Positions 1 through 52,642 of a stretch of 61,893 nt of DNA are shown here, in pieces; position 1 is the first letter of the stretch, and each line of letters begins with the position of its first letter. The notes beneath the pieces were generated by a model. That model ran no database searches, was not told the origin of the DNA, and saw only the letters and a program-made list of their open reading frames with translations. The DNA is from an uncultured Bacilli bacterium (GTDB taxonomy: Bacteria > Bacillota_I > Bacilli_A > RF39 > UBA660). The stretch covers positions 1 to 61,893 of the forward strand of contig CANRBE010000001.1 of assembly GCA_947628785.1 (NCBI GenBank), read 5' to 3'. The position numbers and the translations under genes are program-made.

Positions 1-61
1 ATTCTATTAAGGTAAATCCTTTTACCTTATCTGTAAATAATACCCCCCCCCATATTGACAT
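1..61 (-). CDS. type IV pilin-like protein, paralog of 51386..52576; only the first 20 codons are inside the window
   Basis: nt 2-118 are a near-exact copy of 52517-52633. The minus-strand ATG at 61 gives MSIWGGVLFTDKVKGFTLIE, identical to the leader and mature N-terminus of the downstream pilin gene. The body lies left of the window. Confidence 0.6.
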   Translation of the reverse strand, partial: MSIWGGVLFTDKVKGFTLIE

Positions 62-98
62 TCTCTTTACACATATTCTTCCTACCTTTCTAGTTATT

Positions 99-127
99 AT
101 ATTATCATAAATTAATATGAATGACAA
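99..127 (-). promoter_or_regulatory. putative sigma-A type promoter of the edge pilin paralog
   Basis: Minus strand: -35 TTGTCA (127..122), 17-nt spacer, extended -10 TGaTAATAT (-10 hexamer 104..99). Confidence 0.4.
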
Positions 128-4089: not shown

Positions 4090-4860
4090 TTAATAAATTT
4101 TTAGTAAGTATTGGCTTAAAATATCAAAATTAAAACCTGTTAAAACAAATATAATAGCAGCTATAGCTAAGAAAGGACCAAAAGGTACTTCGTGATTAGA
4201 TTTTCTACTTACCATAATTAAAGCAATTGGTAGTCCTATTATCGATGCTACAAAAATACTTAAAATAGTCGTTAAAATTCCAAAAAACATTCCATAGATA
4301 AACATGAGTTTGATATCTCCACCACCCATGGATTCTTTTTTAAATAAGAAATCACCTATTTTTTTTATTCCCCACATTAATAAAAAGCAAACAACTCCTG
4401 ATAAAACCGACTTACCTAAACCAAGTAAACCACTTTTTATTCCAATTAAAATTGCTAATAAAAATATGGTTACTATAAGCACTTCATCAGGTATAATCAT
4501 AGTTTGATAATCACTTATTATTATTATTAATAACATCGAAATAAAAGTCAAACTGATAAACAAATCAATTGTAATTCCAAATTTCAAATAACATAAACAA
4601 AATAGGACCCCTGTCAATGCTTCAAACAAGCAATAGAAAGGGGATATTTTTTGTTTACAATTTTTACATTTTCTACCTTGAATTAAATAAGATACAATAG
4701 GTATTAATTCAATAGGTGTTAAATAATGATTACAATTAGGACAGTGACTAGCTGGACTTACTATCGACTCTCCTCTTGGTAAACGCCAAGCTACTACGTT
4801 GTAAAAAGAGCCTAAAACAGTTCCAAAGATAAAGAACACCACGGCATAATATACTGTCAT
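4090..4860 (-). CDS. prepilin peptidase (A24 family, PilD/ComC-like)
   Basis: Polytopic membrane protein with N-terminal CPNC...CKNC zinc-binding pairs and a GGGDIKLM active-site motif. Immediately downstream of the PilC-like gene. Confidence 0.9.
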   Translation of the reverse strand: MTVYYAVVFFIFGTVLGSFYNVVAWRLPRGESIVSPASHCPNCNHYLTPIELIPIVSYLIQGRKCKNCKQKISPFYCLFEALTGVLFCLCYLKFGITIDLFISLTFISMLLIIIISDYQTMIIPDEVLIVTIFLLAILIGIKSGLLGLGKSVLSGVVCFLLMWGIKKIGDFLFKKESMGGGDIKLMFIYGMFFGILTTILSIFVASIIGLPIALIMVSRKSNHEVPFGPFLAIAAIIFVLTGFNFDILSQYLLKIY

Positions 4861-4870
4861 AAAATCCCCC

Positions 4871-7150
4871 CTATTGCATGTTTTGAACAGATTGATATAA
4901 GTTAAACATTGGAATAATAACCGCTAAAATAATTACACCAACTACTACCGTTAAAAATATTGTAAGAATTGGTTCAATAAAGGTTTTTATTCTTGTAACA
5001 TTTGTTTTTTCAAGACTTTGATAATATGCTGATACTTTAGATAACATATCTGGTAACTCACCTGTTGCTTCACCAGTACAAATCATTTCATAAGCAGGAA
5101 TTGGGAATGCCCAGTTACCTTCAAACGCATCAGATATTTTACCACCTTTAGCTAGGTTTGATACAACATCTAAAATCATCATTTTATATATTTCATTGCT
5201 AGTTATTTTGTTTAATATTTCAAGACACTCTGGTATTGGAACATTGTGGGCAAGTAAAGAACTAAATGTTTTAGTAAAAGTTGCCACTTCACTATATATC
5301 ATTGTATCACCAATTGCTGGTATATGCATAACAACCCATTGATTAAGAGTTCTAAAAAATCTGTTCTTTTTATATAATAATAACCAAATAGCTATTATTA
5401 AGACTATAACAATAACCATAGTAATTATATTATTTTGTAAGAAGAAACTAACACTCATAACTAATTTAGTAAAGCTTGGTATCTCAGTTCCATCCATAGT
5501 ATTATATATATCTACAAATCGAGGTACAACAAACATTAAAATGAAAGTTATAACACCTAATGCAAATATTCCGACAATAGTTGGATAAGTCATAGCTGTT
5601 ACAAATTGTCTTCTTGTTTCTTCTATTTCGGTATAATAATCAACCATATCATCTAATACTTCTGGTAATTCACCAGTCATTTCAGCTGTTTTAACCATGT
5701 TAATTAACAATTTTGGAAACGCAACATTTTGTTTTTCTAAAGCTGTTGAAAAATTTTCACCCATTGTTAATTCATAGATAATTGAACGGAATATTTTTTC
5801 GTATTTTTTCTGTTTTACAAATTGCCTTGATAATATTCTTAAAGATTCAACTAAGGTAATACCAGCTTTTAAATAGGTTGATAATTGAGCTAAGAAGAAT
5901 ATTAAATCTTTGCTTTTAAATTTTACTTTATTGACATCAGACCCACCATGAAGTAAGGTTATCCATTTATTAGTTTTAATACTATATACTTCATATCCTT
6001 CACTTAACAAGAATGAATGGACTTCAACTCTTGAATAAGCTTCAAAGTATCCTTTAACAAATTTTCCTTCTTTGTTTTTAGCTTCGTATTCATAAACTAA
6101 TTTAACGTCACTTTTCTTAGCTTCATCACCTTCAAAATCGATAAGTAAAGCTTGTCTATTTATATCTCGTCTATTTCGAGCATTTTTAATAAAACTGTTA
6201 TTTAAGAATACTCCCGCTATTTTTTTAGGTATTTTATTAAATTCTTTTAGTTTGTCAGATAATACAGCAAAGGTATTTGGTTTTTCTTTTTCAATATCTT
6301 CATTGATATATGCTTCTTGATTTTTTTCTCGAGCTTCTTTTAAAGCTTTCTTATGGTCAAGTTTTTCTTGTTTTTTTCTTTCTTTAGCTTGTTTCTTTTC
6401 TTCAATCTTACGTTGTTTTTCTTTTTTTCTTTCTTCAGCTGACATAGCTTTTCGTTTGATTTTTTCTTCTTCACTACGATTACGATTTCTAATTTTTTCT
6501 ATTTTTTGTTGTTTTTTAAGTTCTAGTTTTTCAGCTTGTTTAGCTTTCTTTGCTTCTATAGCTTGAATTCTTTTTTGTCTTGCTTCTTCTTTTTTTGCTC
6601 TTTTCTCTTCTAAAGCTATTTGTTTTTGACGTTTTTTCTCTTCTTGTTCTGGGGTTAGTTTTTTCTTTTGTTTTTTAAGTTCTAATTGTTTAGCTTTTCT
6701 TTCTTTTCTGGCTTGAATTCTTTTTTGCCTTGCCTCTTCTTTTTTAGCTTTCTTCTCTTCTATTTCTTTAAGTTTCTTTTGTCTTGCTTCTTCTTTTTTA
6801 GCCTTTTTTTCTTCTAAAGCTTTAAGTTTTTTTTGTTTGGCTTCTTCCTTAAGCATTGCTTGATGTTCTAATTTAGCCTTCTTTTGTTCTTCTTTTAAAG
6901 ATAACAAAGCCGGTTCCGTTTTCACTGAACCTGTTATATTTTCATTCATTTTGCCTTTTTTCTTATGTTTTGCTTCTATTTTTAATTGTTTTTGGTTTGG
7001 AATTTGTTTATTAGTATTTGATCCTTTTGGGTTTATTAATAAGAAAAGGAATTGAAAAGGAATTGATATTATAAATAATAATCCTTTTGCAATATACTTA
7101 AATGTTCTATAAATTAAAATACAAATTCCTAAAAACAATCTTTGTATCAT
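4871..7150 (-). CDS. type II secretion / type IV pilus platform protein (GspF/PilC family) with a ~340-aa N-terminal membrane anchor plus Lys/Glu-rich extension
   Basis: The C-terminal ~415 aa show the duplicated GspF architecture (LAQLSTYLKAGITLVESL..., 3 TM segments). The N-terminal third is a KKAKKEEARQK-type repeat region. Confidence 0.85.
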   Translation of the reverse strand: MIQRLFLGICILIYRTFKYIAKGLLFIISIPFQFLFLLINPKGSNTNKQIPNQKQLKIEAKHKKKGKMNENITGSVKTEPALLSLKEEQKKAKLEHQAMLKEEAKQKKLKALEEKKAKKEEARQKKLKEIEEKKAKKEEARQKRIQARKERKAKQLELKKQKKKLTPEQEEKKRQKQIALEEKRAKKEEARQKRIQAIEAKKAKQAEKLELKKQQKIEKIRNRNRSEEEKIKRKAMSAEERKKEKQRKIEEKKQAKERKKQEKLDHKKALKEAREKNQEAYINEDIEKEKPNTFAVLSDKLKEFNKIPKKIAGVFLNNSFIKNARNRRDINRQALLIDFEGDEAKKSDVKLVYEYEAKNKEGKFVKGYFEAYSRVEVHSFLLSEGYEVYSIKTNKWITLLHGGSDVNKVKFKSKDLIFFLAQLSTYLKAGITLVESLRILSRQFVKQKKYEKIFRSIIYELTMGENFSTALEKQNVAFPKLLINMVKTAEMTGELPEVLDDMVDYYTEIEETRRQFVTAMTYPTIVGIFALGVITFILMFVVPRFVDIYNTMDGTEIPSFTKLVMSVSFFLQNNIITMVIVIVLIIAIWLLLYKKNRFFRTLNQWVVMHIPAIGDTMIYSEVATFTKTFSSLLAHNVPIPECLEILNKITSNEIYKMMILDVVSNLAKGGKISDAFEGNWAFPIPAYEMICTGEATGELPDMLSKVSAYYQSLEKTNVTRIKTFIEPILTIFLTVVVGVIILAVIIPMFNLYQSVQNMQ

Positions 7151-8966: not shown

Positions 8967-9035
8967 ATAATCACCTTCTTTATTATATGTTTTATTTTAT
9001 AATATTAGAAGGTATTTTTTTGTCAAAAAAATGTT

Positions 9036-9059
9036 AAAAAAAAGAATACTTATGTATTC
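9036..9059 (-). terminator. intrinsic terminator at the left end of module copy A
   Basis: Minus strand GAATAC-ATAA-GTATTC followed by T8. Conserved in copy B (50798..50819). Confidence 0.55.
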
Positions 9060-9177
9060 TATAAAAAAAACTAGTTTAGTTATTTTATTTTTATGGTTTA
9101 ATTTATACTGATATTTTTTTACTTAATAATGTTTTAAAATCTGTCGAATTAAGTCGAACGTTTTTTCATATTTTTTA

Positions 9178-9207
9178 TTGACTTTTTTTATTATTATATG
9201 TTAGTAT
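9178..9207 (+). promoter_or_regulatory. possible promoter for the plus-strand small-ORF transcript
   Basis: -35 TTGACT (9178-9183), 18-nt spacer (19 in copy B), TGtTAGTAT extended -10 (9202-9207). The spacer is longer than optimal. Confidence 0.35.
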
Positions 9208-9294
9208 ATCTTACTGAGACGTACTTTACTTTCAAGGGGTTTTCGGTATTTTCCCTTTTTATTTTAATTTTAAGATAGAAAGGTGATGATGCTT

Positions 9295-9402
9295 ATGAAA
9301 ATTTATTTTATAAGCTTTAATAAATATTATAAAACATCAAGATTTAACATCTTAGACTTTATTCTATTTATCATCAATGTTTACTTCAAAATAAAAAGAT
9401 AA
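9295..9402 (+). CDS. 35-aa aromatic/hydrophobic peptide MKIYFISFNKYYKTSRFNILDFILFIINVYFKIKR (candidate type I toxin-like peptide)
   Basis: AGAAAGGTGAT SD lies 7 nt before the ATG. The ORF and SD are 100% identical in copy B (51046..51153). Below the ORF-track length cutoff. Confidence 0.5.
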   Translation: MKIYFISFNKYYKTSRFNILDFILFIINVYFKIKR

Positions 9403-9404
9403 AC

Positions 9405-23137: not shown

Positions 23138-25165
23138 TTAATTGCAAGTACTTATTTTATAACTATTTTTATCAAGTTTAATTCTTATACTACCATTCTT
23201 ATCTGTCCGATATATTTTAGAATCTTTTAAAATATCTAAGACTTTTTTATTAGGATGATTATACTTATTATTTATTCCAACTGATATTAAACTATATTTA
23301 GGTTTTATTGTATCAATAAATTTTTGACTGGAAGAAGTGATAGAACCATGATGTCCAACTTTTAAAAAATCAATATCTTTTAAATTGTATTTATTTAAAA
23401 TATCTTGCTCTTTATAAAAAGAAGCATCTCCCATTAATAAAAATTTATAATTATAATATTTAAAATAAATTACATTAGAATTATCATTTTCATTGTCATA
23501 CATTTTTGTATTTAAAAAATATAGTTTATATTTAGAAAGATTAATTTTTTTTAAATTTTTATAATATTTTATTTTCTTTTTATTTAAAACTTTAACTAAT
23601 TCTTTTTCTAAAAAATTAAAATCATCTTGATTAAATATAACTTTATCGACTTTAAATTTTTTGACTAAATTAATACTTTCTTTCATATGGTCCGAATCAC
23701 CATGACTTAAAATCAAATAATCAAGTTTTTTTATTCCCCTTGCTTTTAAAGAAGGCAATAAAACATAATTTAAAATTTTATCACTTCCATATAAACCACC
23801 TGTATCAACTAAAATGTGTTTATTATCTAAGGTAATTAAAATGCTATCTCCTTGTCCAACATCAAGTATTTCCACAAAATCATTTTTTATTAAAGAAGGA
23901 TAAAAATAATGAATTCCTAAAACTAAAACAATAATAAATTTTCTAGTTTTACAATTTTTAAAAACAAAATAAAAAATAACATAATAAATGATTGTAATAA
24001 AAATATTTTCATATTTAAAAATTAAAGTAAAATTATCAATATCATTCAAAAATAAGGAAATTTTTTCTAAAATATTTATCAAAAAAGTTAAAATGAAATC
24101 TAAAAAAGGAAAAATAAATGAAATAATTAAAACAGGTATAAATAAATATGTAACAAATGGTACAAAAAACATATTGAAAAAAGGAGTTAATAAATTGATA
24201 CTATAATTTACTCTTATACTAATTGGTATAGAAACTAAAAAGCAAAAAACACTCAATTTAAAAAGCGAAATAATAAAATTTTTACTTTTTAAAAGATTAG
24301 AAAAACGTAAGATAAAAAAAGTAATAACAAAACTAAAGACAAAACTTAAATCATAAAAACAATAAGGATTAATTAACCATATTATCAAAGCTAATAATAA
24401 TAAAAAATGATAATTTTTTAAAGGAAAACTAAATTTGTTTTTAAAAACCATAAATATATATAAAATTACACTTCTAATTAATGAATAAGAAGTATTGGCA
24501 ATTAATAAATAGATAAATAAAAAAATAATTATTATCAATTGTTTTCTTTTTGTCTTTTTTAAAATAGTACTTAAAAAAAGAACTATCAAAGTAATATGCA
24601 TTCCTGATATAGAAAATAAATGACTAATTCCATTTTGATTAAAAGAATCTTTTAAATCTTTTTTAATATCTTCCTTACTTCCTAATAAAAACAGTTTATA
24701 GTATTCTTGGTTTTTTCTTTTTTCTATTTTACTTTTAATATTTCTTTTAATTAAAAGATAAATATTATTAGTAACACCTAATTTATTTATTTTATTAGAA
24801 TAGCAAATTTTTTTGATGTTTTTACTTAATAAATACTTCTGATAATCAAATAGATAAAAGTTAGATTGTCTACTTGGATTTTTTAGTAAACAATCTACTT
24901 TTACTATATCACCTATTTTTAAATTATTATCCGTCATAAGTAAAATATTATTAGGTTTTAAAAGATATTGATTTTTATTTAAAAGACTATTAACTGTACC
25001 AGTTATTTTTTCTTTTTTATTAATATTAATAATTCTTAAATTATTTACTCTAAATAGTATTATTAAAATCAAACTAAAGAGTAAGATTATCTTTGATTTT
25101 TTCGTATATTGAATCTCCAATTCCTGGAACATTTTTAATATCTTCAATCTTTTTAAATGGACCAT
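23138..25165 (-). CDS. comEC: DNA internalization competence protein ComEC/Rec2
   Basis: Polytopic competence domain plus a C-terminal metallo-beta-lactamase module (ILSHGDSDHM...VGHHGS). The 5' end overlaps the comEA 3' end; the true start is uncertain (25165 or 25132). Confidence 0.9.
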   Translation of the reverse strand: MVHLKRLKILKMFQELEIQYTKKSKIILLFSLILIILFRVNNLRIININKKEKITGTVNSLLNKNQYLLKPNNILLMTDNNLKIGDIVKVDCLLKNPSRQSNFYLFDYQKYLLSKNIKKICYSNKINKLGVTNNIYLLIKRNIKSKIEKRKNQEYYKLFLLGSKEDIKKDLKDSFNQNGISHLFSISGMHITLIVLFLSTILKKTKRKQLIIIIFLFIYLLIANTSYSLIRSVILYIFMVFKNKFSFPLKNYHFLLLLALIIWLINPYCFYDLSFVFSFVITFFILRFSNLLKSKNFIISLFKLSVFCFLVSIPISIRVNYSINLLTPFFNMFFVPFVTYLFIPVLIISFIFPFLDFILTFLINILEKISLFLNDIDNFTLIFKYENIFITIIYYVIFYFVFKNCKTRKFIIVLVLGIHYFYPSLIKNDFVEILDVGQGDSILITLDNKHILVDTGGLYGSDKILNYVLLPSLKARGIKKLDYLILSHGDSDHMKESINLVKKFKVDKVIFNQDDFNFLEKELVKVLNKKKIKYYKNLKKINLSKYKLYFLNTKMYDNENDNSNVIYFKYYNYKFLLMGDASFYKEQDILNKYNLKDIDFLKVGHHGSITSSSQKFIDTIKPKYSLISVGINNKYNHPNKKVLDILKDSKIYRTDKNGSIRIKLDKNSYKISTCN

Positions 25166-25730
25166 TTTTTAGACGATATTCAACTATGGCTTGAGCTTTA
25201 CTTTCACCAACACCAGATAAAGTCATAAAATCTTCTTTAACACCTTCATTTAATGATACTTTACTACTATTTTCTTCTTTATTAGAACTTTCTTTTTTAT
25301 TTAAACAAGCATCATTTAAATTATCAGGACAACTCTTTTCTTCCACTTTAATTTGGTATTTTATTTGTTCATCTTTTTTCATTGCATTTATCTCTTTTTG
25401 ACTATATATTATAATAGCCATCGAATCAGTAACTCTTTTGCTTAAATTGATATAATCTGTATTAGCTTCTTTAGTAAGTCCTCCAGCTTTTTCAATAGCT
25501 TGATAAATAGTATAATCTTTACCTACTTCATAAACTCCTGGATTTTTTACTTCTCCCTTAATATCGACAAAGATAGTTTTAACACTTTCTTTTACTTGAG
25601 GAATTTCCTCTTCTTCTATTTCATTTTTATCATTATTAGAAAAGGCTAAAACACTATTAATTAAAACTAAGAAAAAAAGGATAAATCCTCCGATAAAATA
25701 GTAGTAATATTTTTTTACAAACTCTTTCAT
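25074..25730 (-). CDS. comEA: competence protein ComEA (SLBB domain + helix-hairpin-helix DNA binding)
   Basis: N-terminal TM, SLBB segment VDIKGEVKNPGVYEV...AGGLT, and C-terminal LSGVGESKAQAIVEYR...VPGIGDSIYEKIK HhH pair. Confidence 0.9.
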   Translation of the reverse strand: MKEFVKKYYYYFIGGFILFFLVLINSVLAFSNNDKNEIEEEEIPQVKESVKTIFVDIKGEVKNPGVYEVGKDYTIYQAIEKAGGLTKEANTDYINLSKRVTDSMAIIIYSQKEINAMKKDEQIKYQIKVEEKSCPDNLNDACLNKKESSNKEENSSKVSLNEGVKEDFMTLSGVGESKAQAIVEYRLKNGPFKKIEDIKNVPGIGDSIYEKIKDNLTL

Positions 25731-27227: not shown

Positions 27228-28127
27228 TTATAAAAATAAACTTGTTTTGATTTTTTTTAGTTGTTTTACAGGAACACTAGTTACTTTGGATATCAAAGAT
27301 ATATCTATTCCATTTTTAAACATGTTTTCTATTAATGTTTTTCTTTCACTAGTTTTTCCTTGACTTATACCATAATTAATTCCCTGACTAATTCCCTCTT
27401 CATAACTATCTTGTCTAGCTTCTTCTAATACTAATTTATCTTCTTCTTCTTTAGTCCACCATTTCTCTGGAAATTTTCTATTTTTACACATATCCATCAC
27501 CTCTTCTATAAATTTTTTAATTCTTTTTTCACTTAAGTTATTTCTTAATATACTTTCACATTCACTAAACTTTATTGCGGTTAATGACGCTAAATAGACT
27601 ACTTTCTTCTCTCTGTTTCCACTATAATACATTTCTCTATATTTTTCAAGGTTTTTTATTACTATGGTTGGATTTTTACTTAGTATTTTATTTTGTTTTC
27701 TTCCTATACATAATCCAACTTCTTCTAATGTATCATTTTTTGTTGTTTTATAAGTATTTAGATTTAACTGATATACTTGATATTTATTAATATCTTTTAA
27801 TTTACTACCCCTGTTAATATTTAAAGTTCTTATTTTATAAGCATATACTATATTTCTTTCTAATATGTTTTTAGACCTACTTTTATTTATTTCTGTATCT
27901 ATTAAGTATTTATCATTAATTACAGTAAAGATATCGACATTTTTTCTTTTTTCTTTGATTTGGTCAATAGTTAATTCTACATTTTCAAATTCAATATTAA
28001 CTTCTTTTAAACCTAACTCTAATACTTCATTTAACATATCACCAAAAATATCTTTATTTTTTATAAATATTGCTTTAATCAGAAAATCAGTAGTTAAAGG
28101 GATTGGTATTAAATCGTTATCCGACAT
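27228..28127 (-). CDS. Rpn/YhgA-like PD-(D/E)XK recombination-promoting nuclease (putative transposase family)
   Basis: N-terminal PLTTDFLIKAIF...VDIFTVINDKYLIDTEIN core and a C-terminal EEGISQGINYGISQG...GIDISLISKVTSVPVKQLKKI tail, typical of this family from memory. Confidence 0.55.
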   Translation of the reverse strand: MSDNDLIPIPLTTDFLIKAIFIKNKDIFGDMLNEVLELGLKEVNIEFENVELTIDQIKEKRKNVDIFTVINDKYLIDTEINKSRSKNILERNIVYAYKIRTLNINRGSKLKDINKYQVYQLNLNTYKTTKNDTLEEVGLCIGRKQNKILSKNPTIVIKNLEKYREMYYSGNREKKVVYLASLTAIKFSECESILRNNLSEKRIKKFIEEVMDMCKNRKFPEKWWTKEEEDKLVLEEARQDSYEEGISQGINYGISQGKTSERKTLIENMFKNGIDISLISKVTSVPVKQLKKIKTSLFL

Positions 28128-50726: not shown

Positions 50727-51045
50727 TTTTTCACCCCTTTTTTTATGAGTTAATATTGTAATCTTTTTTTTAATCAATGTCAATAAAAATTTTTATTAAA
50801 AAAGAATACTTATGTATTCAAACTAATTTAGTTATTTTATTTTTATGGTTTGATTTATACTGATATTTTTTACTTAATAAGGTTTTAAAATTTGTTGAAT
50901 TAAGTCGAACAATTTTTCGTATTTTTTTTGACTTTTTTTTATTATTATATGTTAGTATATCTTACTGAGACGTACTTTACTTTCAAGGGGTTTTTGGTAT
51001 TTTCCCTTTTTATTTTAATTTTAAGATAGAAAGGTGATGATGCTT

Positions 51046-51153
51046 ATGAAAATTTATTTTATAAGCTTTAATAAATATTATAAAACATCAAGATTTAACA
51101 TCTTAGACTTTATTCTATTTATCATCAATGTTTACTTCAAAATAAAAAGATAA
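51046..51153 (+). CDS. 35-aa peptide identical to that of 9295..9402
   Basis: Nucleotide-identical ORF and SD. Confidence 0.5.
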   Translation: MKIYFISFNKYYKTSRFNILDFILFIINVYFKIKR

Positions 51154-51155
51154 AC

Positions 51156-51257
51156 ATGAAAAACGCCGTTTTCCTATGAAAGCGGTGTTTTTCTTTAAAA
51201 ACAACTTTAAAGGGAAATACCACTAGGTATGTCTCTTTTTTATGAAGTTTCCTTCAC
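51156..51257 (-). ncRNA. predicted ~100-nt convergent sRNA, copy B
   Basis: Minus strand: -35 TTGTTA (51292..51287), 17-nt spacer, TATTAT (51269..51264). Hairpin at 51158..51193 plus a T run. Confidence 0.4.
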
Positions 51258-51385
51258 GCTTTAATAATATCATATTTTTTTTGTTTTAACAAGTATTAGA
51301 TTGTTAGAATATATAGAAATGCTTAATTAAACCGCGTTCATGTTACTGAATACCAGTAACATGACTTATTTTTATTTTGCTTCGT

Positions 51386-52576
51386 TTATGATACTTCTAA
51401 TTCATATTCATCTCCTATTGCTCCTGAGCCTGTTCCTAGTTTGACATCACTTTTAAGAACTACGACTGGGCGCACTCCATACGAACTGGCGTTGGCGCCC
51501 CAGCTACTGTTGCTTGGATACCAAGCATACAAGTTGTAAGTGTTGTTAGCAGAGGCCAGCCAGTAGTAGCTACCAATATTTATTAGTTCTGTATTTCCTC
51601 CACAGTATGAACTTGTATTGTTATAACAGTTTCCTCTTTCATTTTTTTCTAAGTAGTCCCATAAACTATAATCTTCATTTCCGTTTTCTTCATAGTTTAT
51701 TATATTTACATCATCACTATCCATGTAATGGACACTTAAGGCATATGTACTATTTCCATATTTTGTCCAGGCTTTTCCTTCTCCTTCATTACTAGCTGAT
51801 GTTGCTCTTACTTTTAGTATTTCTTTACTGGCTATACTTTGTCCTGATACATAATAGTAACATTCTGGGGTTCCTCCATGAATTAATGTAATTTGTCCAT
51901 TACTATCAACATCCATTATTCGCCAACCACTATATTTCGTTGTATATGAGTCATTATAACATGTGATACTCTCATTCTTACTTTTTCCATTGATCGAACT
52001 ACTTGTAACTTCATCATAGATATTGAATGTTCTTGAAGTTTTACCTTTTGTTTCTCTTACTCCATCTCTTGTGGCATTCCAGGTGGCATTATCTGGACTA
52101 TATTTTACATATTTTCCTATATCATTTTTTATAGCCTTTCTTGGTGGCACATATTCTTTTCCTGTCCATACTCCATTTAAATAATTAAATACATATCCAT
52201 TTATTAATAAGCCTGTTATACTCTCTACATCTCCATCTTTTGTAAACTGAACTGTTCCCTTACTTGGTAAACTTCCATCTATTTCTAAATTTAAGACTTT
52301 ATCTCCACAGGTTAATTTATCTTTTAAGGCGCTACAACTTTCTTTTATCGTCTTATTTTTTCCCATCATATGAAACAAATGAGCTTTTTCTGATGCCTCC
52401 TTATATTCCATGGCACTACTTTTAGCTCCTTCATATTTTGCTTTTTCAATTAAATTTAATATAGTTGGTGTTACTATTAAAGCTATTATAGAAAGTATTA
52501 CTATAACCGCTAATAGTTCTATTAAGGTAAATCCTTTTACCTTATCTGTAAATAATACCCCCCCCCATATTGACAT
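51386..52576 (-). CDS. type IV pilin-like protein with large C-terminal lectin-like domain
   Basis: Leader MSIWGGVLFTDKVKG then FTLIELLAVIVILSIIALIV (class III signal, Glu at +5). C-terminal YWLASA...GVRPVVVL motif. The ORF-track TTG at 52642 is rejected. Confidence 0.8.
   Translation of the reverse strand: MSIWGGVLFTDKVKGFTLIELLAVIVILSIIALIVTPTILNLIEKAKYEGAKSSAMEYKEASEKAHLFHMMGKNKTIKESCSALKDKLTCGDKVLNLEIDGSLPSKGTVQFTKDGDVESITGLLINGYVFNYLNGVWTGKEYVPPRKAIKNDIGKYVKYSPDNATWNATRDGVRETKGKTSRTFNIYDEVTSSSINGKSKNESITCYNDSYTTKYSGWRIMDVDSNGQITLIHGGTPECYYYVSGQSIASKEILKVRATSASNEGEGKAWTKYGNSTYALSVHYMDSDDVNIINYEENGNEDYSLWDYLEKNERGNCYNNTSSYCGGNTELINIGSYYWLASANNTYNLYAWYPSNSSWGANASSYGVRPVVVLKSDVKLGTGSGAIGDEYELEVS
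52558..52566 (-). repeat. G9 homopolymer (C9 on plus strand) within the pilin leader codons
   Basis: Encodes the W-G-G of MSIWGG. An identical C9 lies at 43..51 in the edge paralog. Confidence 0.95.
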
Positions 52577-52613
52577 TCTCTTTACACATATTCTTCCTAC
52601 CTTTCTAGTTATT

Positions 52614-52642
52614 ATATTATCATAAATTATTATCCTTAACAA
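52614..52642 (-). promoter_or_regulatory. putative sigma-A promoter of the pilin gene
   Basis: Minus strand: -35 TTGTTA (52642..52637), 17-nt spacer, TGaTAATAT (hexamer 52619..52614). Confidence 0.45.

Follow-up and report, generated by a model that had tools for sequence, protein, structure and literature searches.

The window is a complete contig of 61,893 nt (CANRBE010000001.1, assembly GCA_947628785.1) from an uncultured Bacilli bacterium, and searches of the window cover that contig alone. Near the 3' end of one of its minus-strand genes lies a short GC-rich island. We conclude, with a probability of roughly 0.88, that this island is the variable region (VR) of a diversity-generating retroelement (DGR) target gene, and that the gene encodes a type IV pilin-like protein. 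A sequence-only reading of the contig had already noted that the island resembles such a VR and had placed the template repeat (TR) and the reverse transcriptase (RT) outside the window. Its proposal is supported by the hypervariability of the island among homologues, by the behaviour of its 3' end, by a TR in a related metagenome-assembled genome (MAG), and by RT cassettes in more distant relatives. The gene and its parts are as follows.

51386..52576, minus strand: target gene, protein P0001, 396 aa (open reading frame (ORF) list, Pfam, NCBIfam, homologues)
52493..52537, minus strand: prepilin signature KGFTLIELLAVIVIL, with G/F cleavage site, Glu+5 and hydrophobic helix (PF07963, TIGR02532)
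51456..51560, minus strand: VR, 105 nt, encoding (W)LASANNTYNLYAWYPSNSSWGANASSYGVRPVVV (homology to the TR of the related MAG)
51479..51560, minus strand: mutable part of the VR, with AAC/NNY codons, high G+C at third codon positions (GC3) and hypervariable residues (alignments, codon statistics)
51456..51478, minus strand: invariant GC-rich 3' end of the VR, GGAGTGCGCCCAGTCGTAGTTCT, resembling an initiation of mutagenic homing (IMH) element (DNA identity across copies)
51338..51364, no strand assigned: palindromic hairpin with an 11-bp stem, just past the stop codon (terminator-like scan, DNA fold)

A GC-rich island in a type IV prepilin-like gene

The G+C content of positions 51458-51571 was 60 of 114 nt (52.6%), compared with 24.6% for the whole window. 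When all 114-nt stretches of the 61,893 bases were scored, the richest one held 61 G+C, at 51457. The window-wide mean was 28.0 with a standard deviation of 6.8, which places the island about 4.8 standard deviations above it, and the runners-up in this ranking were tRNA genes and conserved housekeeping genes. The island sits near the 3' end of ORF 51386-52642 and translates, on the minus strand, to SYYWLASANNTYNLYAWYPSNSSWGANASSYGVRPVVV. Its codon usage also differed from that of the remainder of the gene: Asn codons were AAC/AAT 5/0 in the island and 4/22 elsewhere (Fisher p = 7e-4), Ser codons were AGC/AGT 3/2 and 1/22 (p = 0.011), and GC3 was 63% and 17%, respectively. Within the gene, CTG and CGC were confined to the island, and the two codons occurred only 8 and 2 times in the 15,639 codons of the long ORFs of the window. 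The sequence-only reading had already described the island as GC-rich and rich in AAC codons. Our recount gave its figure of 60 G+C, re-translation matched its coding strand and protein exactly, and its statements that all five Asn codons are AAC in a gene where AAT prevails, and that CTG and CGC are otherwise rare, were both borne out.

The open frame of the target gene continues upstream to 52642 (418-aa ORF), and the likely start is the ATG at 52576. The N-terminus of P0001, ...KVKG/FTLIELLAVIVIL, has all the marks of a type IV prepilin signal: a Gly end, F/M+1, Glu+5 and a hydrophobic helix. It matched PF07963 (N_methyl) in Pfam with E=1e-7 and 31.6 bits (cut-off 21.2) and TIGR02532 (prepilin cleavage/methylation domain) in NCBIfam with 29.4 bits (cut-off 16.3). 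P0001 is thus type IV prepilin-like, and its C-terminal domain is large and weakly resembles DUF6273. The hairpin at 51338-51364 is kept in the related locus L004, and none was seen beside the paralogues of the MAG Lapin-028__bin82 described below; it is probably a terminator and not specific to a DGR.

The island is hypervariable between conserved anchors

Protein searches returned close homologues at 42-84% identity, together with a very large prepilin-type family ending in ...YW.(A/T)S...GVRPV.... When the 14 closest homologues were aligned, the framework was well conserved and the segment between WLAS and GVRPVV was hypervariable. The residues found in this segment were almost only N, S, T, Y, D, G, A, C, H, F, I, V and R, which is the set given by NNC/NNT codons. 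The comparison with paralogues and homologues that the sequence-only reading had proposed as a check thus found the island to be hypervariable, not invariant, within a conserved framework.

We also compared the copies at the DNA level. In an alignment of five genes that differ at synonymous sites elsewhere, TGGAGTGCGCCCAGTCGTAGT was unchanged, as were the anchors TTGTAT, TGG and TTCG. Between the window gene and that of P0002, identity was 88% and 86% in the two flanks, 68% in the mutable part and 23/24 in the 3' end. The 20-mer of the 3' end, GGAGTGCGCCCAGTCGTAGT, was found exactly at 14 places: in the window, in L004, in L005, and at 11 sites in two GTDB MAGs. Even proteins only about 50% identical to each other share this ~23-nt end, the GC-rich end that had been pointed out in the island, as identical or near-identical DNA. 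Synonymous third-position adenines (GGA, CCA, GTA) were unchanged in every copy with the exact 20-mer; the four VR copies that lack it carried one to several substitutions in the 3' end, including two synonymous adenines.

The GC-rich 3' end of the VR was nearly identical to, yet distinguishable from, the corresponding end of the TR described below (IMH*). Coding copies read GTAGT and the TR reads GTAGC, a one-base difference after GTCGTAG. We infer from this sequence pattern that 51456-51478 acts as the IMH. DNA folding revealed no hairpin directly after the IMH-like element, the only strong hairpin being the terminator-like palindrome past the stop codon.

Two further observations concern the same gene family. 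A second hypervariable loop lies at 51602-51628, about 40 nt upstream of the VR, and takes the forms CYNNTSSYC, CNVSTNANYC and CYGDTNSYC in close homologues. Since this loop is AT-rich and outside the TR-homologous segment, it appears to vary through ordinary mutation and selection. In addition, P0004 (L005 173-991, 272 aa) is 91-93% identical to the window gene at both ends, lacks the middle domain and has a wholly different VR. It sits on a contig of 1.7 kb and may represent either a deletion variant or a chimera of the assembly.

A non-coding template repeat in a related MAG

An exact scan for the 20-mer, which covered one genome per GTDB species, found 11 copies. Ten were on nine contigs of Lapin-028__bin82, an uncultured Bacilli MAG from rabbit gut (GCA_947623815.1), and one was in Lapin-014__bin57; all 11 lay within pilin-like reading frames. 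When paralogues without the exact 20-mer were counted, Lapin-028__bin82 held at least 14 variable segments in 11 genes on 11 contigs, with two or three variable domains in some of the proteins.

A template predicted from the consensus of the VRs then served as query for approximate matching, which located a TR in locus L006 of this MAG. The exact 20-mer scan had missed it because of the one-base IMH* difference.

L006 3233->3126, minus strand: TR, 108 nt, non-coding (approximate matching)
L006 2940-3273, minus strand: stand-alone TR-spacer unit, bounded by a weak promoter-like site and by a terminator-like hairpin

The first part of the TR reads GCTGGCGTCTGCC TCT ACT ACT AAC AAC TTG TAT AAT TGG AAT CCG AAC AAC CGG AAT, and the rest reads GTG AAC AAC AAC AAC GAC AAT TCG TTT GGA GTG CGC CCA GTC GTA GCT CTC TAA; its 3' end is ...GTCGTAGCTCTCTAAG. 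The repeat is AAC-rich, is preceded by a weak promoter-like site with no pilin coding sequence upstream, and has a spoVID-like gene on one side and the leader of an alaS-like gene on the other. When the L006 TR region was compared with the VRs by BLAST, all 17 VR copies examined, including that of the window (51560->51456), aligned to TR positions 68-175. These identical alignment limits indicate that the homology to the non-coding copy starts and stops at the borders of the island. A pilin pseudogene fragment was ruled out as the origin of the L006 copy by the exact start of the homology at the VR border, by the A-rich variable columns and by a conserved spacer motif.

No RT, Avd or MutS-like (MSL) gene was detected in the 13.8-kb L006 locus (3 kb downstream and 10 kb upstream of the TR). 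The target nearest to the TR is P0009, 6.8 kb away on the opposite strand. Beyond the TR-spacer unit, the sequence contains a perfect TTGACA-17-TATAAT promoter and a putative T-box leader of the alaS-like gene. Genes of the PDDEXK_2 (PD-(D/E)XK transposase) family were found at L006 11247-12110, directly downstream of P0009, at L017 1066-1959, about 8 kb upstream of P0008, and in the window at 27228-28127.

Differences between template and variable regions concentrate at adenines

The best pair consisted of the L006 TR and the L014 copy (protein P0007), in which 12 of the 29 TR adenines were mismatched, against 2 of the 76 remaining bases, and one AAC codon was lost. Across the nine VRs of 108 nt, columns were variable at 30 of 31 TR adenines and at 26 of 73 other positions (p = 1e-9); the pooled mismatches were 139/279 at A and 89/657 elsewhere. 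The sequence-only reading had asked whether variation is confined to A-templated positions. Compared with the L006 TR, the differences fell mainly, though not exclusively, at template adenines. The VRs of Lapin-028__bin82 thus form TR/VR pairs with the L006 repeat, and the window VR aligns to the same TR with the same limits.

Codon positions gave a concordant pattern. In pairs of Lapin-028 paralogues, VR differences fell mainly on codon positions 1-2 rather than 3 (for example, 24 vs 3), and the remainder of these genes changed mostly at position 3 (contrast with the VR, p = 2.5e-5 to 2e-3). Changes in the first two positions are those expected of AAC/AAY-templated codons.

RT, Avd and MutS-like genes adjoin homologous targets in more distant relatives

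Genes for bAvd (PF22296) and MutS_I-like proteins adjoin homologous pilin targets in six loci of more distant relatives (L151-L154, L156 and L158). Downstream of P0089, a pilin with two variable domains, there is a 126-aa gene and a bAvd gene (PF22296). Locus L153, on a 157-kb contig, has the order rplQ, target with two VRs, TR (9018-9099), MutS_I-like gene, bAvd, and a 70-aa remnant of an RT N-terminus (10001-10213). Both of its VRs differ from its TR almost only at adenines within the TR core.

Two other cassettes were reached by a bAvd search. In L156, the end of a target is followed by a TR, a MutS_I-like gene, bAvd and an intact RT of 361 aa (1334-2419; RVT_1 E=4.8e-20), which carries IGNMTSQ and YMDD motifs. 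The closest IMG/VR relatives of this RT are only 30-35% identical, and so nothing suggests that it is of phage origin. In L158, the RT is again truncated (2287-2532). The TR, MutS-like gene, bAvd and VRs of L153 and L158 look intact despite the shortened RT, which suggests either recent loss of the RT or reliance on an RT acting in trans. With the RT N-terminal fragment and bAvd as queries, the search led to a complete cassette only in the distant relative L156, and it extended to neither the species of the window nor Lapin-028.

The stand-alone TR of Lapin-028 is connected to these cassettes through its spacer. The spacer after the TR shares GAGAACAA.TATTATTCCTT with the spacers beside the MSL - Avd - RT cassettes (19/20 with L158), and both have a common short hairpin at the same distance from the template. 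Several contigs (L150, L151, L152 and L156) repeatedly end in or beside the TR/VR/Avd region. If, as we suspect, assemblies break at the TR/VR repeats, this DGR family may be under-represented in RT-centred surveys of short-read MAGs.

Searches for a template and enzymes in the window and in collections

No TR was found in the window by an ungapped A-tolerant scan, by BLAST with the L006 TR or by spacer-motif searches, the VR itself being the sole match. An nhmmer profile of the TR-spacer likewise returned the VR only. Searches of the window with a YxDD regular expression, and by phmmer and tblastn with Brt and Avd of phage BPP-1 and with the RT, MSL and Avd proteins of L156/L153, yielded no RT, Avd or MSL. 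A DGR-clade RT and accessory genes of the Avd, HRDC, MSL or CH1 type were thus absent from the 62 kb. The statement of the sequence-only reading that neither a TR nor an RT is present in the window therefore held under the A-tolerant scan, BLAST, nhmmer, Pfam and phmmer/tblastn alike.

The contexts of P0002, P0004, P0006, P0008, P0009 and P0011 contained no RT or Avd. The 20-mer had 0 matches in IMG/VR. A TR-specific 17-mer, GTGCGCCCAGTCGTAGC, had 8 matches in IMG/VR and 120 in JGI metagenomes, all of them chance matches of this too short pattern in unrelated, mostly GC-rich DNA.

Fold of the C-terminal domain

Within the 418-aa ORF, the C-terminal domain matched DUF6273 (PF19789) with E=3.8e-4 and 20.8 bits, below the cut-off of 23.5, and the match ends at the island. 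With the 396-aa form no match was reported, and among 29 homologues only 8 reached E<=0.01. In published work, DUF6273 is a C-type-lectin-like module that carries the VR at its C-terminal end and closes with a motif of the G-V/I-R-P-V type (PMC11792537, PMC10743442). From this weak match and the literature, the island may form the ligand face of a lectin-like fold.

Structure prediction did not establish this fold. In the full-length AlphaFold2 model, the N-terminal pilin part, a long helix and a beta-sheet, had a predicted local distance difference test score (pLDDT) of ~90, and the C-terminal domain was of moderate confidence; a model of the domain alone had a pLDDT of 43. The pLDDT over the VR was 41-46, and the best PDB match in Foldseek was 9qa6, an IgA peptidase of Thomasclavelia ramosa, with E=0.01. 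The N-terminal domain of this peptidase is annotated as DUF6273 (PMC12402451). No significant match was obtained in BFVD by Foldseek, or in PDB by Foldseek or profile sequence search.

Proposed mechanism

The proposed mechanism is as follows. A short non-coding TR elsewhere in the genome would be transcribed together with its downstream spacer. A DGR RT with Avd, and probably a MutS-like accessory protein, would copy the TR into cDNA, misincorporating bases opposite template adenines. This cDNA would then take the place of the VR, with the invariant GC-rich, IMH-like 3' end (GTGCGCCCAGTCGTAGT) as its guide. Codons templated by AAC/AAT would in this way be randomised at their first two bases, and the scaffold codons (TGG, TTG TAT, TCG, GGA GTG CGC CCA GTC) would stay as in the template. 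Adenine-templated rewriting around such a fixed scaffold would account for the foreign G+C, the AAC bias, the fixed third positions and the cross-species DNA identity of the 3' end. The window's own TR is expected to be a non-coding copy of ~105 nt ending in ...GTGCGCCCAGTCGTAG(C). A TR and an RT belonging to this genome presumably exist, or once existed, beyond the 61.9-kb contig. The product P0001 is probably an adhesive protein, and it would be displayed as an adhesin on a type IV pilus-like fibre.

Several results weigh against the DGR interpretation. Pfam detected no RVT_1, bAvd or MutS_I among the 45 window ORFs of at least 100 aa. The ~200 kb of loci L001-L019 contained no RT, Avd or MSL by YxDD regular expression, phmmer or tblastn, and only one TR. 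Of three related cassettes, two (L153, L158) have an RT cut to 70-81 aa, so that the system may be decaying in parts of the lineage. The consensus VRs of P0006 and P0011 were identical across two or three assemblies, so that no rapid turnover is visible at the consensus level. Compared with the heterologous L006 TR, the window VR had 12/29 mismatches at A, 15/76 at other bases and a 3-nt gap; given these non-A mismatches, the window's own template must differ. Differences between the window gene and P0002 at codon positions 1+2 vs 3 were 19 vs 7 in the VR and 125 vs 91 elsewhere, a trend only (p = 0.15). Finally, VR copies differ in length by one to three codons among paralogues, and non-A differences recur in subsets of VRs (GAT TGG for AAC AAC; TAT AAC for TCT ACT). 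Together these imply further TR variants, and Lapin-028__bin82 should have at least one more template variant.

A bolder form of the DGR interpretation is that the element is fully dispersed in this lineage, with one or more stand-alone TR-spacer RNA genes and a remote RT serving a dozen or more scattered type IV pilin-like adhesin genes. We hold this arrangement only tentatively, as somewhat less probable than its contrary. TR variants differing in length may form part of it, and its RT may be a shared one or one that is lost and regained from time to time. If it is true, one retroelement diversifies the whole pilus-adhesin repertoire of the cell, with the window gene and a truncated paralogue at the contig edge as two of its members. 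It would also be the largest remote-target set among the DGRs in the literature compared, and would make type IV pilins a dedicated DGR substrate.

Alternative explanations

The alternative that survives best is a sub-case of the DGR explanation, namely that the VR is a fossil, written by a DGR in the past, with the functional RT and/or TR since lost, so that the segment would now change as any other DNA does and retain a compositional scar only. Such a loss would fit RTs of only 70-81 aa in L153 and L158, two of the three related cassettes. It would also fit the failure to find an RT beside the stand-alone TR or beside a single one of at least 13 targets, the identical VRs in independent assemblies, and the several T-ending and non-AAC codons of the window VR. 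However, the IMH-like end is perfectly conserved in the window and 13 other copies, synonymous sites included, which argues for continuing constraint at the DNA level. Moreover, GC3 in the island remains undecayed at 63% in a genome of 25% G+C, the VRs of L153 equal their TR at almost all non-A core positions, and an intact RT is present in the lineage (L156). We regard a fossil VR as rather unlikely.

Gene conversion among pilin paralogues, combined with diversifying selection on an adhesin loop and operating without reverse transcription as in pilin-cassette antigenic variation, could draw on donors at hand, as one genome holds at least 11 paralogous genes; conversion would keep the scaffold and the 3' end homogeneous, and selection would drive the amino-acid change. 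Recombination yields length differences among VRs more easily, and the second hypervariable loop at 51602-51628, outside the TR homology, indicates that selection alone makes variability here. Yet this process cannot explain a promoter-preceded non-coding copy limited to the VR, or A at 30/31 variable columns. It also leaves unexplained the AAC/NNY codon architecture, the foreign G+C, and the linkage of this protein family to bAvd, MutS-like and RT genes, and we consider it very improbable. A compositional patch that arose by chance or horizontal acquisition, without a mechanism of its own, would fit the abrupt G+C difference only and has a negligible probability, because the island is in frame, ends at domain motifs, stands in register in dozens of homologues, varies between conserved anchors, and forms a 4.8-standard-deviation excursion that coincides with the TR match.

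Pilus machinery and a repeat module in the window

The window also contains a truncated paralogue of the target gene and genes of the type IV pilus machinery.

2..127, minus strand: paralogue N-terminus and 5' leader, running off the left contig end (direct repeat D8)
4090..4860, minus strand: prepilin peptidase (Pfam A24_N_bact, Peptidase_A24)
4871..7150, minus strand: PilC-like platform protein (Pfam T2SSF)

The edge paralogue, which the sequence-only reading had also noticed, was confirmed at 2-127, with 96% identity to 52517-52642 and 99% identity to the start of the P0002 gene in L004. Processing and assembly machinery for type IV pili is represented in the window by the prepilin peptidase and the PilC-like T2SSF protein, which could process and assemble the pilin-like targets, P0001 presumably among them. 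The PilC-like protein has a long N-terminal extension with repeats (150-nt tandem repeats, 6494-6847). ComEC and ComEA genes are also present (23138-25730). Machinery for type IV pili and competence, comprising the peptidase, PilC-like, ComEC and ComEA genes, thus lies on the contig close to the truncated edge paralogue.

An intergenic module of about 500 nt occurs twice in the window, at 50820-51314 and 9068-9563, with ~96% identity, and its first copy lies directly downstream of the pilin gene. It contains a promoter-like site, a ribosome-binding site, an ORF of 35-39 hydrophobic/basic residues (51034-51153, plus strand, MKIYFISFNKYYKTSRFNILDFILFIINVYFKIKR) and a hairpin at ~51160-51195. A 50-nt piece of it recurs at L019 3019-3068. 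We rejected this repeat as a TR or spacer, as it is similar to neither. Rfam returned nothing relevant for the copy downstream of the pilin gene. It may be a small mobile or toxin-like module.

Significance and comparison with known systems

DGRs are already known, and so are their remote targets, cassettes with MSL and Avd, and targets of the DUF6273 type. The moderate interest of the present case comes from the related MAG rather than from the window: a large paralogous family of type IV prepilin targets, in which 11 scattered genes hold at least 14 VRs, together with a TR-spacer gene that stands alone. The case indicates that composition by itself, here a patch rich in G+C and in AAC within an AT-rich genome, can point to a DGR target whose retroelement lies tens of kb or more away, and RT-centred DGR finders would miss remote targets of this sort. 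In these uncultured rabbit-gut Bacilli, a type IV prepilin stalk appears to be fused with a DGR-diversified, probably lectin-like binding head. An active system would allow pilus-mediated adhesion or uptake to be re-tuned on short time scales, paralleling the type V pili of Bacteroides. The truncated RTs of the related cassettes offer a natural series for studying DGR decay or action in trans.

Among phage systems, the mtd/avd/TR/brt element of Bordetella phage BPP-1 resembles the present one in its TR/VR pair, its adenine-specific differences, a GC-rich IMH slightly unlike IMH*, and the C-terminal position of the VR, there within a lectin-like fold and here within a putative one. The phage element has its target, TR and RT side by side and a hairpin after the IMH, whereas the window has no Brt or Avd homologue and no hairpin right after the IMH-like element. 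The DUF6273 targets or 'tentaclins' of Faecalibacterium prophages have their VR at the C-terminal end of DUF6273 (PMC11792537, PMC10743442), and the weak match in the window likewise ends at the VR. Those phage targets are tail or decoration proteins with an RT nearby; here, the target is a chromosomal pilin-like protein with a sub-cut-off DUF6273 match and no RT in 62 kb.

The cassettes of the distant relatives L156 and L153, with the order TR - MutS-like - Avd - RT, resemble those of Legionella pneumophila and other MSL-containing DGRs. The combination of MSL and Avd was named 'Architecture D' by Wu et al. 2018, who also documented remote DGR targets (PMC5758913). Unlike the Legionella-type systems, the present one belongs to low-GC, spore-forming gut Bacilli and has a pilin-like target, and the window itself is without cassette genes.

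The closest parallel for scattered targets is the Treponema denticola DGR (TvpA), which is also chromosomal and non-phage, with C-terminal VRs in several scattered surface proteins of lectin fold. Seven non-adjacent targets were reported in Treponema, the largest number in the survey of Wu et al. (PMC5758913). The T. denticola system has an HRDC accessory gene and lipoprotein targets, whereas the targets here are type IV prepilin-like and the related cassettes carry MutS-like and bAvd genes. In the related MAG, 11 genes carry at least 14 VRs, and the TR stands alone, away from any RT.

Variable proteins of cellular Bacillota have been described as mostly resembling phage receptor-binding proteins, and the same study reported Bacteroides DGRs that act on type V pilus tip adhesins (bioRxiv 10.1101/2024.11.15.621889). 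In both the Bacteroides systems and the one described here, gut commensals would vary the binding end of a pilus subunit. The Bacteroides targets belong to type V pili of Bacteroidota, with cassettes beside the targets or on integrative and conjugative elements, whereas the targets described here bear the type IV prepilin signal (GFTLIELL) and occur in Bacillota.

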